Below are positions 39,239 through 54,132 of a DNA stretch of 64,000 nt, piece after piece (positions within the stretch are counted from its first letter, which is position 1; the number at the start of each line of letters is the position of its first letter). The position numbers and the translations under genes are program-made. The notes below the pieces were generated by a model. That model was given only the letters and a program-made list of their open reading frames with translations, was not told the DNA's origin and searched no databases. This stretch comes from Leptonemataceae bacterium (GTDB lineage: Bacteria; Spirochaetota; Leptospiria; Leptospirales; Leptonemataceae). Location: contig OZ245742.1 in the NCBI GenBank assembly GCA_965227295.1, positions 3,712,001 to 3,776,000 of the forward strand. The letters are read 5' to 3'.

Positions 39239-42142
39239 TCACCCCGTCGCTCCCAACCCCACTGCCACACTTTCAATCGTCGATACCACCAGCTTACGAA
39301 TCTGATCCATCTCTTCCTCGGACGCGTCCGCTTCTTCCAGGTCCCGATAACGTCGGAGCAATTGCGTCTGCAACAGACCCAGGCTGTCCACCCAGGGTTG
39401 TTTGAGGAGGCGGGCCGCGAGCAGGTTCGGGAAGTTGCGCCGGTAGAAATCCGCCGGGTCGCTGCCGATGCCGTGCAGGAGGTTCGCCTCGCAAGTCGCG
39501 AACTCCGTGCGGATCCGTTCGAAAATGAACTGCGCGCCGTCTTGATCCCGGGCCAGGCCGGCATAGAGTTCGCCGATGTTTAAGTTCGTCTGAGCAAGAG
39601 CTAACGCGCTGTTCTGTAAAATCGCTCGAAAAAAATTCCAGTCCGCGTACATGCGCTTCACAAAGTCTTCGCCTCCCGGTACCTCGCCGCTCAGGTCGCT
39701 CAGTCCCTGGCCGAGACCGAACCAGCCCGGCAGCATTTGCCGTGACTGAAACCAGCGAAAGACCCAGGGAATGGCGCGCAGGTCGGCCACGGTTCGCATG
39801 GCGCGCCGTCGTCCCGGCCGCGAACCGATCTTCACCAGTTCCACCTCGCGCGGCGTCGCGTCCTCGAAGTACGCCACAAAGCGCGGTTCTTCGTGAATGA
39901 GATTGCGATACGTCGCGCCGGCGTGTTCGGCCAGGCGTGCCGCGGCGGCGAGGAACTCTTCCGGCGGTTCCGGATCGGGGCGCGCGTTCTTGTCCACGGC
40001 GGCGCTGACGATGGTCTCCAGGTGCATGTCCGCGATTTCTTCGACGACGTAGTAGCGTGACAGGACCTCGCCCTGTTCGGTCAGGTCGTAACCGCTGCGT
40101 GCGGCATCGGGCGGCAGCGAGTAGGCGGCGTGACGGCTGGATGCGCCGCCCCGGCCGATGGAACCGCCGCGGCCGTAAAAGAAGCGCACGTTCTGGTTTG
40201 CGCGGCGTCCGAGGGCCAGCAGCCGTTTCTGCGCCAGGTAGATCAGCCAGTTGCTGGTAAAGTAACCGCCGTCCTTGTTGCTGTCCGAAAAACCCAGCAT
40301 AACGATTTGCCGGCGTCCCCGGGCTTCAAGCTGCGCCTGGCAGGCCGGGTCGGCAAACACGGTCTCCATAATGTCGCTGCTGCGTTCGAGGTCGTCGATC
40401 GTTTCAAACAACGGAATGATGTCCAGGGCGCTGTGCCAAACGCCGTCCAGGTTCTGATAAAACAGGCCGGCGCTTTTCAAGAGCAAGAGCGCGTGCAGGA
40501 CGTCCTCGGGACGGGAGGTCATGGTGAGAATCAGATTCGTGGTGCAGTGCGGGCCGACGAACTCGTGCGCCCGGCGCACCGCGGCGAGCATCTCGTAGAT
40601 TCGTTTCACAAACTTCCAGTCATCAAAAGTTTTGAAAAATCGCTCACCCGTTTCGCTGTCCAGCGTCAGGCGCCGGAGATCCACCGCCTTCGGATCCAGA
40701 ATTTCCCGGCTCAACAGCTCGCGGTACGCCGGATCGCCGTCGTTCGCGGGACCGCTTTCCCCGGGATCGATATCGTGGCCGGCCGCGCGCAGGGCGAGCC
40801 GCGCCGCCCGGGCAATGTGCACACTGTCCTCGCGCAGATCGAGGGAGGCCAGGTGAAAGCCGAACATGGACAAACGATCGCGCAGCGGGCGGATGCGCTC
40901 CTCCGCGGTACTCTCGAAGCCGTTGCGACGCAGGGCGGCGTCCAGCACGGCCAGGTCCGCATCGGCTTCTTCCATGTAACGATACGCAAACAGCTCGTGC
41001 CCGGATTCTCCGCCCAGACGATACTGCCGGGCCCGTTCGCATTTGCGCGACATCAGTTCGATCTTCAAACGAAAGGGTTCGCGCTGGACGAAACGCAGCA
41101 GCGGATCCGGATCCAGGCCGGCCTGCTCCATGGCCGTTAGATCATCCCGAACAGAAGTTAATAGATCCCGCGCGTCGAGATCCGGCGTCCACGCGAGACT
41201 CAGCATGGGACTGGTTTTGTTCAGGGCCTTCCCGAAGAGTTCCAGGGCCGCATCGCGCTGCAGGTCCACGGCGCGCTCGTAGACGCCGGCATTCACGAAG
41301 GGGTTGCCGTCCATATCGCCGCCGACCCAGCTACCGAACCGGAGCAGGGGCCGTTCCAGGCCGGCCGGCGATCGATCAAAGACGCGCTGAAACTCGGCGC
41401 GGACCTGTGCCGCCAGGCGCGGCCCCGCATCGTAGACGGTATTGCGAAAGTAGCCGATGACCTGGCGAACTTCGTCCAGCACCTCGGGTTTTTCCACGCG
41501 GCCGAAGCGGGTGGCCGCGGCGACGTTCAGTCGTTCCCGAACGCTCCGCACCAGTTGTGCAAAGTGCGTCTCGTCCGTGGCGTTGTACAGTTCTTTGAGC
41601 AGCGCGTACATTTCCCGTCGACCCTCGAGGATGATGCTGCGAAAGATGTTGGTCGGATGCGCCGTGGCCACGAGGCGAATCTGTACGCGCTGGAGAATGG
41701 CTCCGATTTCTTCGGCGGAGACCCCGTCGTCTCGCAGGGCGGCGATGGTGCGGCCCATGCCCATGCCTTCGGCGGCGAAACGCTGTCGTTGGTGCAGTCC
41801 TTCGGCAAGACTCAGGAGTGACAGCAGCATGCGGTAGGCCGTGGTGACGGCTTCCATGCGGGCAGGATCTTCGCCCACGGCTCGTAGAAAACTTGCGCGA
41901 CCGTCCTCGGTGAGCGTGTCCGCTCTCCCGCCGGAAGCCACCAGACGTTGTAACTCTACCCCCTCCCGTTCCCGGAGGATATCGAAGAATAATGTAAGCA
42001 AGAAACGAACCGTACGCGCGAGCGCCGGGCTAATGGATTCGGCTTCTTTTATGAAATGGAGGGACGGGTCCTCATCGTCGAGGTCCAGGCCGGTCAGGAG
42101 TTGTTCGGTGTAACGATCGAAGAGCGAGTTTCCGGCAGGCAT
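39239..42142 (-). CDS. ppc: Phosphoenolpyruvate carboxylase
   Basis: TAHPT, GSWVGGDMDGNP, LDLREDS, PLFETIDDL, VMLGFSDSNKDGG, GRGGSIGRGG, TEQGE, LRAIPWVF and terminal TG motifs. Confidence 0.96.
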   Translation of the reverse strand: MPAGNSLFDRYTEQLLTGLDLDDEDPSLHFIKEAESISPALARTVRFLLTLFFDILREREGVELQRLVASGGRADTLTEDGRASFLRAVGEDPARMEAVTTAYRMLLSLLSLAEGLHQRQRFAAEGMGMGRTIAALRDDGVSAEEIGAILQRVQIRLVATAHPTNIFRSIILEGRREMYALLKELYNATDETHFAQLVRSVRERLNVAAATRFGRVEKPEVLDEVRQVIGYFRNTVYDAGPRLAAQVRAEFQRVFDRSPAGLERPLLRFGSWVGGDMDGNPFVNAGVYERAVDLQRDAALELFGKALNKTSPMLSLAWTPDLDARDLLTSVRDDLTAMEQAGLDPDPLLRFVQREPFRLKIELMSRKCERARQYRLGGESGHELFAYRYMEEADADLAVLDAALRRNGFESTAEERIRPLRDRLSMFGFHLASLDLREDSVHIARAARLALRAAGHDIDPGESGPANDGDPAYRELLSREILDPKAVDLRRLTLDSETGERFFKTFDDWKFVKRIYEMLAAVRRAHEFVGPHCTTNLILTMTSRPEDVLHALLLLKSAGLFYQNLDGVWHSALDIIPLFETIDDLERSSDIMETVFADPACQAQLEARGRRQIVMLGFSDSNKDGGYFTSNWLIYLAQKRLLALGRRANQNVRFFYGRGGSIGRGGASSRHAAYSLPPDAARSGYDLTEQGEVLSRYYVVEEIADMHLETIVSAAVDKNARPDPEPPEEFLAAAARLAEHAGATYRNLIHEEPRFVAYFEDATPREVELVKIGSRPGRRRAMRTVADLRAIPWVFRWFQSRQMLPGWFGLGQGLSDLSGEVPGGEDFVKRMYADWNFFRAILQNSALALAQTNLNIGELYAGLARDQDGAQFIFERIRTEFATCEANLLHGIGSDPADFYRRNFPNLLAARLLKQPWVDSLGLLQTQLLRRYRDLEEADASEEEMDQIRKLVVSTIESVAVGLGATG

Positions 42143-42252
42143 GTTTGTTTTGCGCCTGTGCAACGGTGCGTGTCAAGGAAGAGAAAGGCCGGTCCGGACC
42201 AAAGCCATCGAAGATTCAGCGAATTTCGACGGAGCCGTCACCGGATCGTCAC

Positions 42253-43053
42253 TCACTCGCGTGCCATCATCAACACGCCGTGTTGTGTCTTCGCGATCAC
42301 ACTGTTCTTTTGAAACGACGACATCGCCTCGGCCATGTCCGTGTCACTGATTCGACTCATGGACGCCACCGCGTTCACCAGATAGAAGGCCTGGCCTTCG
42401 ATGCGAAAGGTGAGCACGTTGTCCTTTACGCCGGCAACGATTCGTCGCCGGCTCAGTTTTTTCAAAGCTGCGTCCGCATGACCGACGGCCTCGTACGGTT
42501 GCCGGACAAGATCGATGCGACGCAGGCCCAGAGACTCTGCCGTCAATTCTTCGACGATCAGCTTCTTGTTGAACTGACTGAAGCGCGCGTGCATGTCGAT
42601 CTGCGCTAAGAGTTGATCAATTTCACTTTGGGCGATCTCGCGTTCGTCGGGCCCCATGATGCCGCCGGTGTTGCGGACGATCAATTCACGAATGCGCTGA
42701 ACGATCTGCTGGTTTTGCGCAATCGTGCCTTCGACGTGGCGCAGATAATTACGAAAGTCGGCCGCATTCATGGACTCGCGGCGCAGCCCGCGCACCAGGC
42801 TGTCCATTTGTTCGGCGACGGCCAGGCCCGCCGGGTCGAGGCCCGCGGACGTGATGCGCTCGCCCGAAGCCAACTGGCCGGCGGTTTGATCGAGGCCGGC
42901 GTTGCGCAGGCGGCTCTGCCGTAGAATGAACTGTTGCGTGCCTTTGCGAAGCACGTAGAAGTTTGCGCCGGACGGCTGGAAGAGGGACTGGGCGCTCAGT
43001 GCGGAAGAGGCGAGGGAGCTGAGCAGCAACGTTAGTAACAGGATGCGATTCAT
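42253..43053 (-). CDS. Flagellin-like protein with an apparent N-terminal Sec signal peptide
   Basis: LASGERITSAGLDPAGLAVA, QRIREL, EIDQL, QFN and SRISDTDMAE motifs; N-terminus MNRILLLTLLLSSLASSALSA. Confidence 0.85.
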   Translation of the reverse strand: MNRILLLTLLLSSLASSALSAQSLFQPSGANFYVLRKGTQQFILRQSRLRNAGLDQTAGQLASGERITSAGLDPAGLAVAEQMDSLVRGLRRESMNAADFRNYLRHVEGTIAQNQQIVQRIRELIVRNTGGIMGPDEREIAQSEIDQLLAQIDMHARFSQFNKKLIVEELTAESLGLRRIDLVRQPYEAVGHADAALKKLSRRRIVAGVKDNVLTFRIEGQAFYLVNAVASMSRISDTDMAEAMSSFQKNSVIAKTQHGVLMMARE

Positions 43054-43082
43054 GATTTACACTATATCTATATCTGTCGATC

Positions 43083-43886
43083 TCACTTCCGGCACGCGAT
43101 GCGCAGCGTACCCACCTGCAATTCCTCGGCCGGCAACTCGCGAAAACGCGTTGCCAGTCGTTCTGATGCCGGCGGTGACTGTTTGATGAGAGCATCCTCC
43201 GTGTTCGTAACGGAAAAGCCTGCGTCCTCGAATGCACGGACATAGTCCGATCGCCGCGCCCGGTTTAAATGAAAGCCGCCCCGCGGATTCAGCCAGGCAT
43301 TCCAGGTCCCGTCGGAGTACGCCAAAAAGCGGTACGGATCCGAGAACGCGCCGTGGTCTTTCAGGTCGATGCTATGGCAGGATATCCCGCCGTCTGCCAG
43401 CAGCGCATACGTGCGCCGAATCACCCCGGCATAATCCTTAACATGCTCCAGGCAGGAGTTACTGACGACCAGATCCGGCCGGGGTTCTACGGAGGTCGTA
43501 TCCATTTTCAGGAGGTCCGCCTGGTAAATCGAAAGGCCGTCCGCGAGCTGGTTCTCATCCAGGCCGAGTTCCCGGGCGAGGGCGCCGAGTTCGTTGAGCT
43601 GCTCCTGTTTCGAAGCGGCGTAGAGGTCCACCATGCTCACGTGTTTCGCGCCGGCGGCGAGAAAGAAACACGCCATGTAGGCCACGCGCCCGGAGCCGAT
43701 TTCCAGGACATGACGATCGGCCAGGTCGATGCCGAAAGACGTGAAGATGCTCTGGTAGTACTCAAAGACTCTTCGGGCATGCGCCACGGAGCCGGCGCTA
43801 CGGCCGCGCAGAGAGTCCGCGAGATAAAACAGACGCGGCGGAACCCAGTGTCGCACCAACGCGCGGGGAAGATCCAGAAACGACAT
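43083..43886 (-). CDS. Class I SAM-dependent methyltransferase
   Basis: VLEIGSG, DLVVSNSCLEHV, HSIDLKDH and LNRAR motifs. Confidence 0.85.
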   Translation of the reverse strand: MSFLDLPRALVRHWVPPRLFYLADSLRGRSAGSVAHARRVFEYYQSIFTSFGIDLADRHVLEIGSGRVAYMACFFLAAGAKHVSMVDLYAASKQEQLNELGALARELGLDENQLADGLSIYQADLLKMDTTSVEPRPDLVVSNSCLEHVKDYAGVIRRTYALLADGGISCHSIDLKDHGAFSDPYRFLAYSDGTWNAWLNPRGGFHLNRARRSDYVRAFEDAGFSVTNTEDALIKQSPPASERLATRFRELPAEELQVGTLRIACRK

Positions 43887-44012
43887 CCCCGGAAGATTCC
43901 GCGCGACGCCGGCCCATGTCGATGAATTTTCCCGGTCGAAGACGGCCGTGCCCATGGAAAAAAAATTCGTCCATATGCGCGATCTTACGTTACACAGGGC
44001 AGGAGGAACCTG

Positions 44013-44456
44013 ATGCAAATCGAAGCGTTCGAATATACCCTGGCCGCGATGCCTGACGAAGCAGTGCGCCTGCTGTTACCGGATCATCGGGCGGTGCCGG
44101 GTAATTATCATTTGACCGAGGTCAGTCGGGAAGAGCGGCATACGGTGGACTGTGGTCGCGGGGTGAGTGCGGGCGGTCGCAGCGTCGTCGTACAAATTCT
44201 TGCGGGCAACGACGGAGAACCCATGAAGGCGGCGGCCATGAGCCGCATCTTTACGGAAAGCCGGAAGCTATTGGGGCAGGAAAGCTTGACCGGTGAATTG
44301 TTTTTTGAGTATGATGCGGGCGTGCTCGGTCGATATCGTGTAGGCGAAGTGTTGTCCCGGACCGACGGCCTCGCGGTGCTCCTGGAACCGTTGCATGCAG
44401 CCTGTCGGCCCGCGGAACGCATGCGCCGGAGCGGCGGCGGGCGTTGTTGTGCTTAA
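44013..44456 (+). CDS. DUF6428-like protein (metal/arsenic-resistance associated)
   Basis: VP..YHLTEV, VDCG, FEY, AC and terminal CC motifs. Confidence 0.7.
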   Translation: MQIEAFEYTLAAMPDEAVRLLLPDHRAVPGNYHLTEVSREERHTVDCGRGVSAGGRSVVVQILAGNDGEPMKAAAMSRIFTESRKLLGQESLTGELFFEYDAGVLGRYRVGEVLSRTDGLAVLLEPLHAACRPAERMRRSGGGRCCA

Positions 44457-52439: not shown

Positions 52440-53168
52440 TCACTTCCACGTATCCGCGTACTCGCCGCCGGGATAGCGCAGGTCCACGAGATCCGAAACA
52501 ATCAGCAAATTATCGAACGACAGGGCGACGTCGCCGGGTTTGCTTTTGGGATGCGAACGAATCAGCAGGCCGACGAACCGGTGTTCGCGGCGGCGTTCGA
52601 CGTTGCGTTGCATCTTCTGCAAACTTACGGGTAACGTGAGATCCAGGCGGCGCCAGCCGTGCCACAATAGATCGCCGGCCGGCACGCGGACCTCTTTGCC
52701 CTCGGCGGTTTCGAAGAGTAGTTCCAGTTTATCTCGATACATCGAAGAACGAACCCACAGCGACGCGCGAAACAATCGGCCGGGAATCATCACCGGCTCC
52801 GAAACTTCCAGGCGGTAGTGCTGGCGGCCCGGGACCTCGAACGAGGTATGCACGAACAACGTCTGCTCGCCCACGGCGTTGGTGTTCGCATGTTTCGTAA
52901 CGACCTCGAGTTCGCGCGCGAAGGCCGCTTCGTCCGGGCGCTGATAAATGTAGCGCACGTCCGACAGCATGGTGGAGTTCATCTTCGGTTCGTAGACGCG
53001 GCGGTTTTCGAAGAGGTCCACCGGATACAATCGATACCGGCCGGCGTAACTTTCGATGAGTTGGTCCAGGACTTCCACGCGTCCCTGCGCGTCGTACGGG
53101 GCGGGCAGATCGCGGGCGAATACGGCGCTCGTTAAGAAGAGCGCGCAGATCAACACAAGCCGTCGCAT
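52440..53168 (-). CDS. FlaA-like flagellar filament sheath protein (divergent paralogue)
   Basis: Signal peptide; IPG....SLWV, G.L.W.GW..L, FD.L...D and terminal G.EY.D.W pattern. Confidence 0.7.
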   Translation of the reverse strand: MRRLVLICALFLTSAVFARDLPAPYDAQGRVEVLDQLIESYAGRYRLYPVDLFENRRVYEPKMNSTMLSDVRYIYQRPDEAAFARELEVVTKHANTNAVGEQTLFVHTSFEVPGRQHYRLEVSEPVMIPGRLFRASLWVRSSMYRDKLELLFETAEGKEVRVPAGDLLWHGWRRLDLTLPVSLQKMQRNVERRREHRFVGLLIRSHPKSKPGDVALSFDNLLIVSDLVDLRYPGGEYADTWK

Positions 53169-53220
53169 TATATTAGAATAACGGCAAAAAGCGAAGGATG
53201 CCTGAGAGGATGATGCAGGC

Positions 53221-54132
53221 TCAGGGGTTTCTTTTGCGCTTCTTTTTTGGGCGTCTCGCCGCTGCGCGGCGACCGGGCTTTCCAGGACTCCGCCTTCGGC
53301 TTCGGTCCTCCGCTTCGCTCCGGACTTGCGGCTTCGCCGCAATCCTTCCAATCCCTGACGCGGAAGAGTTTGCATCATCCGCTTCCTTTTCGAACAACGC
53401 GAACAGATCACCCTTACACGACTGTTTCACTTCCGCAAGCACCGCCTCGAATTCCGCTGACGCGAACTCGGCCCCGGGCTGCGGCGGTGATACGCATTCC
53501 ACCGTTTCGTCGCCGAGCTGGAAGCGCAGCGCGTAGGCGTGCAGGTAGGCCCGATCTTCCTGCCTGGCGACATCGTAACGTCCGTACTGGCCGTCGCCCA
53601 GGATCGGCGCGGCGAGCGACTTCATGGCGACCCGGAGTTGATGCGTGCGGCCGGTCTTCGGATGCAATACGTAGAGCCGGAGACCCGGCCGGCGCCCGGG
53701 AATGCCGTAGCTTAAGAAACGTGTAATTGCCGGATTGTTCGTGCTGCGCGCGAGAATCCAGGCGCCGCCGCGACCGCGGATCATGTCGCCGACGATCTTG
53801 CCCTGTTTCTTTTTCGGACTCCGATCCGAGATTGCGAGGTAGATCTTGCGCACACGGCCGTGGCGAAACTCGTTGCCGAGCAGGTTGGCGTTCTTGCGTC
53901 CGCGCGCAAACACCAACAGACCGGAAGTTACGCGATCGAGGCGATGCACCGGGAAGAGTCGCGGGCCGGCGGGAATTTCGCCGGCCTCTTCCATCGCACG
54001 GAGAATCTGCACGAGGCCGCTCTCCTGTTCCTGGCCGTGAAAGGCCACGCCGGGTTCCTTGTGCACGACCAGGTAGTCGTCCGTGTTTTGAACGAGACGC
54101 AGCGGCCGGGGATTCGTATCGCCGCCGGCCAT
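53221..54132 (-). CDS. RluA-family pseudouridine synthase
   Basis: HRLDRVTSGL, TGRTHQLRV, PILGD..Y and YLHA motifs. Confidence 0.93.
   Translation of the reverse strand: MAGGDTNPRPLRLVQNTDDYLVVHKEPGVAFHGQEQESGLVQILRAMEEAGEIPAGPRLFPVHRLDRVTSGLLVFARGRKNANLLGNEFRHGRVRKIYLAISDRSPKKKQGKIVGDMIRGRGGAWILARSTNNPAITRFLSYGIPGRRPGLRLYVLHPKTGRTHQLRVAMKSLAAPILGDGQYGRYDVARQEDRAYLHAYALRFQLGDETVECVSPPQPGAEFASAEFEAVLAEVKQSCKGDLFALFEKEADDANSSASGIGRIAAKPQVRSEAEDRSRRRSPGKPGRRAAARRPKKKRKRNP
53245..53374 (-). repeat. Same repeat family, copy C, inside the 3' end of the pseudouridine synthase ORF
   Basis: Reverse complement aligns with 52015-52145. Confidence 0.85.

Follow-up and report, generated by a model that had tools for sequence, protein, structure and literature searches.

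The window analysed here, a stretch of 64,000 nucleotides from contig OZ245742.1 of a Leptonemataceae bacterium, encodes what its sequence indicates to be a conserved flagellin-family paralogue with a Sec-type leader, and we lean towards the view that Sec carries this flagellin paralogue into the periplasm, where it probably acts on the flagellum from the outside. Flagellins in the textbook sense have no signal peptide and leave the cell by the flagellar type III channel, and their terminal D0 helices serve in export, FliS binding, polymerisation and the formation of the inner tube. That a flagellin fold might be sent to the periplasm by Sec had been suggested in a preliminary description of this DNA, and the in silico evidence supports the suggestion, as the leader is kept among orthologues and protein conservation extends upstream of an internal GTG codon. 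What the in silico analysis establishes is membership of the flagellin family, a conserved leader, purifying selection, the fold and the distribution, as set out below.

Gene coordinates and domain architecture

The gene occupies positions 42253..43053 of the minus strand, stop codon included, as defined by the list of open reading frames, Pfam and 20 close relatives; it starts with ATG and its product has 266 amino acids. Residues 48-164 (42562..42912, minus strand) match Flagellin_N (PF00669, E 8.2e-16) with 58.8 bits, above the Pfam gathering cut-off of 26.6, and correspond to profile positions 15-131 of 139, so that the first ~14 profile positions are uncovered; this part holds the N-terminal D1 helices, which are modelled with pLDDT above 90. 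The match to Flagellin_C (PF00700) is partial, covering residues 193-264 (42262..42477, minus strand) and profile positions 4-73 of 86 with the final ~13 positions uncovered, and its 20.4 bits remain under the Pfam cut-off of 23; from the model and the FlaB alignment, it contains the C-terminal D1 helix and a shortened D0 helix at 240-257. All of the flagellin N and C motifs quoted in the preliminary description were found in the 266-residue protein, namely LASGERI (61-67), DPAGLAVA (73-80), QRIREL (119-124) and SRISDTDMAE (233-242). When the 25 listed NCBIfam flagellin and FlgL models were applied, no cut-off was reached, the top score being 83.9 bits against 352 for flagellin Hag, and the Pfam search gave no match of the protein to the FlaA domain (PF04620) at E<=1.

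The genome itself, a single contig of 5.94 Mb, has six Flagellin_N matches, which comprise four FlaB genes, one FlgL-like gene and the gene described here, and it also has FliS and four FlaA-family genes. Its FlaB proteins are 281-282 residues long, start with MIINHN or MVINHN, end with ...RPQSVLQLLR and share 33-36% identity with the window protein. Aligned with them, the window protein shows deletions of ~29 and ~8 residues at the FlaB D1 insertion, which agrees with the near-absence of a variable domain noted earlier; its C-terminal end was likewise read correctly as ...GVLMMARE without a terminal helix, there being no counterpart of RPQSVLQLLR.

The Sec-type leader and the translation start

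Codons 1-21 (42991..43053, minus strand) encode a predicted Sec/signal peptidase I signal peptide, MNRILLLTLLLSSLASSALSA, recognised by its hydrophobicity and n-h-c layout in comparison with FlaB controls. The layout, MNR / ILLLTLLLSSLASS / ALSA|QS, fits the feature pattern of Sec and signal peptidase I substrates, with a single basic residue, 18 consecutive uncharged residues and A-L-S-A ahead of Q22, and the Kyte-Doolittle mean of its best 10 residues reaches 2.50, whereas the four FlaB controls of the same genome give 0.78-1.04. From the A-x-A pattern we propose cleavage after A21. Residues 1-40 hold no cysteine at all, so that there is no lipobox and the protein does not qualify as a lipoprotein processed by signal peptidase II. 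Taken together, Sec export and cleavage of the window protein are considered highly probable.

The leader is followed by a clade-specific N-terminal segment, QSLFQPSGANFYVLRKGTQQFILR (codons 22-45, 42919..42990, minus strand), which is recognised by its conserved motif and for which AlphaFold2 predicts three short beta strands. Its consensus in the clade is [GS][FY]LFxPxG[AS]NFx[VI]YxRGxxxFI[LI]xQ, with P27 kept in 43 of 44 clade sequences and G38 in 32 of 44. When the register is counted back by hand and ungapped from the LASG/LSSG motif, FlaB residue 1 falls opposite residue 32, so the leader plus ~10 residues would be an addition ahead of a remodelled N-terminus and not a substitution. The leader had been described as replacing the MxINxN start of flagellins; it is indeed present and MxINxN is indeed absent, but the leader precedes a conserved, remodelled segment instead of standing in for the lost start.

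The gene was also compared with its closest orthologue, at locus L007, which is 77% identical in the mature part. Between the two, 7 nucleotides differ in codons 22-33, all of them in third position and all synonymous, and over codons 22-47 the differences at codon positions 1, 2 and 3 number 2, 1 and 16. Since the changes 5' of the GTG at codon 34 are only synonymous, this region is translated and subject to purifying selection. A start at that GTG (near 42954) had been named as the observation that would overturn the Sec reading, and it is contradicted by the protein conservation upstream. The in-frame GTG, the sub-threshold Flagellin_C score and the failure to reach any curated NCBIfam cut-off are what could speak for an ordinary type III flagellin with a miscalled start or for a decaying FlaB duplicate. 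A start at V34 would still give neither an MxINxN start nor a terminal helix, and the frame is open, with the gene single-copy in 24 other sampled genomes, which argues against decay; we regard this explanation as very improbable indeed. A gene-call artefact is contradicted by P27 in 43 of 44 sequences and by the synonymous-only change relative to L007.

No Shine-Dalgarno sequence was seen before the ATG of the window gene, whereas the FlaB genes of the genome have GGAGG ribosome-binding sites. The consensus scan for promoters, which found 2 sites against 0.7 expected in shuffles, gave a promoter-like site, TCGACA-17-AATCAT (43052..43080, minus strand), that runs into the start codon and is a weak lead as the promoter of the gene. 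At four orthologous loci (L016, L020, L021 and L023), -35/17/-10-like boxes such as TTGAAA-17-TATATT end 6-7 nt before the ATG, and such boxes near the ATG suggest leaderless mRNAs for some orthologues. The sigma-28 motif TAAA-N14-16-CGAxA was found upstream of none of 18 clade genes and equally of none of the four FlaB controls.

Conservation and phylogeny of the clade

A word-indexed protein search returned 25 proteins at E<=1e-3 among 4807 candidates. Twenty of them (P0002-P0021) are close relatives of 192-297 amino acids with E values from 7.7e-133 to 2.5e-44 and identities of 44-82%, and the next matches are ordinary flagellins at E 5e-11 or worse. In a profile search of 1.84 billion representatives the two groups separated again: clade members matched without a break from profile position ~5, with 186-407 bits, while ordinary flagellins scored at most 163 bits in two stretches from position ~47. 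At the 50% level some 20 representatives belong to the clade, to which 33 genomic loci of uncultured Spirochaetota can be added, and identity among its members ranges from 27 to 85%.

A search of genome contigs gave 183 stretches encoding relatives, and among the best 80 of the 183, which were examined, 17 loci (L007-L023), with identities of 37-74%, are matched from the N-terminal region onwards and the rest are FlaB genes. These 17 come from metagenome-assembled genomes (MAGs) labelled Spirochaetota, Leptospirales, Spirochaetaceae or Sediminispirochaeta, and in one case just "bacterium". Whether homologues keep the signal peptide had been put forward as a check, and they do: a leader is present in 17/17 loci, with a basic start, a best 10-residue Kyte-Doolittle mean of 2.2-4.1 (FlaB, 0.78-1.04) and mostly small residues just before the conserved segment, and it is visible in 15 of 16 further loci, the sixteenth having a masked stretch. 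The leader sequences vary among orthologues while the leader character is kept. Among 21 database proteins, the annotated start falls inside the leader in four (P0004, P0008, P0014 and P0015), and one over-extended protein (P0012) has the leader internally; the locus matching P0004, which is L007, has the full leader. The short C-terminus is also common to the clade.

These leaders bear on the possibility that the signal is an uncleaved anchor, by which a flagellin-like domain would be tethered to the inner membrane and face the periplasm. The h-region is long, with its 18 uncharged residues, and in some orthologues the small-residue pattern at the proposed site is less clear, as an anchor might have it. 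Most leaders, however, end with small residues at -3 and -1 (ALSA, ALAA, VLGA, LNA, TNA and others), the conserved segment behind the leader is polar, as in Sec substrates that undergo cleavage, and the leader length of ~20-30 residues is typical of cleaved signals, and we therefore hold an anchor to be quite improbable and a cleaved signal peptide to be the better reading.

The phylogenetic analysis was a quick tree by maximum likelihood with 84 rows (32 clade members, 39 FlaB proteins thinned to under 80% identity and 13 others), in which the clade forms one branch with an SH-aLRT support of 99 and a stem of 0.58. The clade groups with a single long-branch protein of unknown origin, and the two are the sister of the spirochete FlaB group (joint support 95; root uncertain). 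The ESM Atlas returned flagellin clusters only; the nearest counts 116 members, most of them from Spirochaetota, and shows Flagellin_C in 17%.

Two further proteins from these searches deserve mention in their own right. P0044 (272 aa) has a hydrophobic N-terminal extension ahead of a complete MVVNVN...VLLGQ flagellin, and is either a miscalled start or an intermediate between FlaB and the Sec-type clade. P0041 (1101 aa) has two flagellin N/C sets in one chain together with an HExxH-containing insert, resembling flagellinolysin, and may have arisen by tandem fusion or as an artefact of assembly.

Predicted structure of the mature protein

Both the precursor and the mature protein were modelled with AlphaFold2 from the 44-sequence clade alignment. 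In the precursor model (mean pLDDT 74.4) the leader forms a helix (4-17) and is followed by strands 22-25, 32-37 and 40-45; the D1 helices (74-129, 135-158 and 186-236) exceed a pLDDT of 90, and residues 247-266 make up a disordered tail. The mature model (mean pLDDT 80.4) places strands at precursor residues 23-25, 32-37 and 40-45 with pLDDT 61-67; residues 46-63 come next as a helix, then the D1 helices, and 240-257 form the C-terminal helix, beyond which the last 8 residues are disordered. The helix at codons 46-63 (42865..42918, minus strand; residues 25-42 of the mature model) is identified as the retained distal part of the N-terminal D0 helix, corresponding to FlaB residues ~15-32 in the hand-counted register. 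In the model, helices 46-63 and 240-257 would form a D0 coiled coil of about half the usual length, and a beta element at 23-45 is predicted, with moderate-to-low confidence (pLDDT about 56-67), in place of the first turns of the N-terminal D0 helix. The D0 region had been called degenerate; its ends are altered as stated, although in the models it keeps a coiled coil of roughly half length and has the beta element in addition.

Beyond AlphaFold2, the beta element is supported by the conserved proline and glycine and by a pattern of aromatic and beta-branched residues. A hydrophobic-moment test of strand against helix favoured the strand in 28 of 44 sequences for the hairpin and in 13 of 44 for the second strand, and because this result is weak and mixed, the beta element rests mainly on the AlphaFold2 models.

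Among known structures, the top Foldseek match was the FlaB of Leptospira biflexa core filaments (9lrz, E 4e-9, 30% identity, TM 0.61); there were 39 matches at E<=1e-3, and the rows listed were all flagellin entries. VIA-align gave a Z of 18 over ~228 residues against filament flagellins, and D1 alone superimposed on 4nx9 and 5gy2 with an rmsd of 1.1-1.2 A over 137-139 residues, which places the modelled domain in the flagellin D1 fold. A three-copy complex prediction of the mature protein (22-266), run without controls, gave no answer, at a score of 0.00 with the mark at 0.42, and counts neither for nor against self-association. The median pI is 7.6, compared with 7.0 for FlaB, and no consistent charge difference was seen.

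Distribution and genomic context

To describe the distribution, 400 other genomes were drawn as an even sample of the phylum and searched at a threshold of 1e-40, which left out the FlaB proteins of the own genome. The gene was found in 24 of the 400, in one copy each, and the carriers belong to families f35 (13), f15 (3 of 11), f27 (2 of 8), f53 (3), f50 (2) and f12 (1 of 17). In the three most heavily sampled families of this draw it was not found (f2, 0/75; f17, 0/38; f19, 0/50). Among 40 relatives, only one genome, from the same genus, carries the gene; it was not found in 23 of 24 same-family genomes, including one same-genus genome that is 93% complete, and no match was obtained in 16 genomes of the neighbouring family. 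That so many same-family genomes gave no match means that spirochete motility as such does not depend on the gene. Between 5 and 9 Flagellin_N matches occur in each of the 25 carriers checked, representing several canonical flagellins and a FlgL-like gene. In one of them (G174), an extra short Flagellin_N match (C8:54667-54972, profile 36-137, 267-aa frame, 71.6 bits) lies beside the clade gene and may be a second divergent paralogue.

In the window, a class I methyltransferase gene (43083-44018) lies on the same strand 29 bp upstream, and PEP carboxylase is encoded at 39239-42163. Nine kb away, at 52440-53411 on the minus strand, there is a FlaA-family sheath gene (PF04620, E 2.9e-10), one of the four in the genome. 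Two DNA sequencing runs from one study contain the stretch with the gene, and a look for RNA runs that cover it found none. No conserved neighbourhood emerged across the 31 orthologue loci scanned, and the methyltransferase and PEP carboxylase are not kept as neighbours. In the same-genus genome G001 (C2:3664500-3670500, L090), PEP carboxylase has other neighbours and no copy of the gene is present, and in G002 the gene lies in yet another context; these differing contexts indicate that the gene was moved, gained or lost within the genus. At five loci (L012, L013, L092, L094 and L095) there is a shared order of DUF4015 glycosyl hydrolase, sulfatase and Sec-type flagellin, followed in L013 and L095 by a PLD-like protein; the DUF4015-sulfatase synteny appears to be lineage-specific and without an obvious functional link.

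Flagellar neighbours occur at 2 of the 31 orthologue loci, which is about chance level, and the other 29 are without them. At L007, FliG is one gene away from the orthologue. The locus L011 (4757-8804, plus strand), from a Leptospirales MAG, encodes FliI, FliJ, an SLT lytic transglycosylase, a 198-aa coiled-coil protein and then the orthologue, all on the same strand, and alone among the orthologue loci scanned has the look of a flagellar operon.

The general lack of flagellar neighbours raises the main rival to our reading, a periplasmic job that is not flagellar, in which the D1 scaffold would be reused, for example, as a self-assembling polymer or scaffold held by beta strands or as a binder of an envelope component. 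This rival draws on the 29 of 31 loci without flagellar genes nearby and on the patchy distribution, with the gene missing even from a same-genus genome; the conserved N-terminal motif and the beta-prone C-terminal tail, neither known from flagellins, and the long stem branch (0.58), which implies a change of constraint, point the same way. The gene is nevertheless found only in Spirochaetota and always with several canonical flagellins, many flagellin-conserved D1 positions are kept, and one locus (L011) is in line with FliI-FliJ. We consider a non-flagellar role rather unlikely on this evidence, while association of the protein with the flagellum, taken by itself, seems evenly balanced. Given that the carriers are spirochetes with several FlaB proteins and periplasmic flagella, an accessory role at the flagellum is the most likely one.

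Discussion

We propose the following mechanism for a periplasmic flagellin paralogue acting on the flagellum. The signal peptide (1-21) would carry the protein across the inner membrane by Sec, and signal peptidase I would free a periplasmic protein of ~245 residues. The mature protein would consist of a complete D1, a half-length D0 coiled coil and an N-terminal beta element at the site where flagellins have the start of D0 and the type III signal. With its Sec leader, non-helical segment and cut C-terminal helix, it would be without the flagellin elements for type III export, FliS binding and the inner tube, and for these reasons it could neither reach the filament as a core subunit by way of the flagellar channel nor complete the inner tube. 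The D1 surface and the new N-terminal element might instead bind the filament lattice, the sheath or the tip. A bolder idea, which we think unlikely, is that a flagellin lineage has left the type III pathway and assembles from the periplasm, either as a filament or ribbon of its own made through the beta strands or by insertion at the tip or into the lattice, where it would set length or shape; if true, this would be the first case of a flagellin-fold protein building or editing a filament that it did not reach through the channel of that filament.

In this conserved and selected family, the flagellin D1 has been kept while the export route was swapped and D0 was remodelled. The family is confined to spirochetes, whose periplasmic flagella lie within reach of a Sec-exported protein. 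The clade plainly derives from flagellins, yet it lacks several of their defining traits, namely the terminal helix, a signal-less N-terminus and scores that reach the curated cut-offs. A search of full-text literature found, in the portions covered, no account of a flagellin-family protein bearing a Sec signal, and the occurrence of the family in uncultured lineages and the failure to find it in the three most-sampled families may explain this lack of mention. If binding to the filament is true, the protein would represent a new class of component for the periplasmic flagellum, a structure whose known make-up continues to change, as sheath proteins reported in 2026 in the published accounts covered illustrate. 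If it does not bind the filament, it would clearly exemplify the reuse of a flagellin domain for a different end.

Comparison with known flagellar proteins

Salmonella F41 is a laboratory proteolytic fragment of flagellin that consists of D1 with missing or shortened D0 ends. The window protein likewise has a D1 domain whose D0 ends are missing or shortened, but it is the product of a natural, conserved gene and has a new N-terminal element and a signal peptide. FlgL, a type III substrate without a signal peptide, has flagellin-like D0-D1 helices, and the window protein resembles it with a structural Z of 11-13 and a partial match to TIGR02550; the 67.3 bits of this match are far under the equivalog cut-off of 127.2, and a FlgL-like gene (424-aa frame) exists in the genome besides the one described here.

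The closest likeness is to FlaB, exemplified by that of Leptospira biflexa (PDB 9lrz and 9lry), with which the window protein shares the fold, the family, the small build of D0 and D1 without outer domains, and the motifs LxSGxRI, DPxGLAV, QRIRxL and SRIxDxDMAxE. It differs from FlaB by the Sec-type leader, by a conserved beta-prone segment in exchange for the first ~14 D0 residues (MIINHN...), by the loss of the last ~10 residues (RPQSVLQLLR) and of the ~29 and ~8 D1-insertion residues, and by the place of its clade on a long separate branch, with Flagellin_C under the cut-off. FlaB is described, in the published sources covered, as lacking a signal peptide and as reaching the filament core through the flagellar type III system, whereas FlaA and other sheath proteins have Sec signals and assemble from the periplasm. 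The Sec-type signal and the predicted periplasmic route of the window protein are shared, as far as these sources describe them, with FlaA (PF04620), with FcpA and FcpB of Leptospira and with FlaL1 and FlaL2 of Treponema denticola, and sheath proteins occur in the same organisms as the Sec-type flagellin. Their folds are unrelated to it, FlaA being beta-rich and FlaL1 a HEAT repeat protein in the same accounts; a flagellin fold is not described there for FlaA, FcpA, FcpB, FlaL1 or FlaL2, and the filament structures and proteomes within the literature covered list no sheath protein with a flagellin fold. Since no flagellin-fold sheath component is described in these sources, the role proposed here is, within them, without precedent. 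The window protein thus combines, in one chain, the fold of the core flagellin with the predicted route of the sheath proteins.
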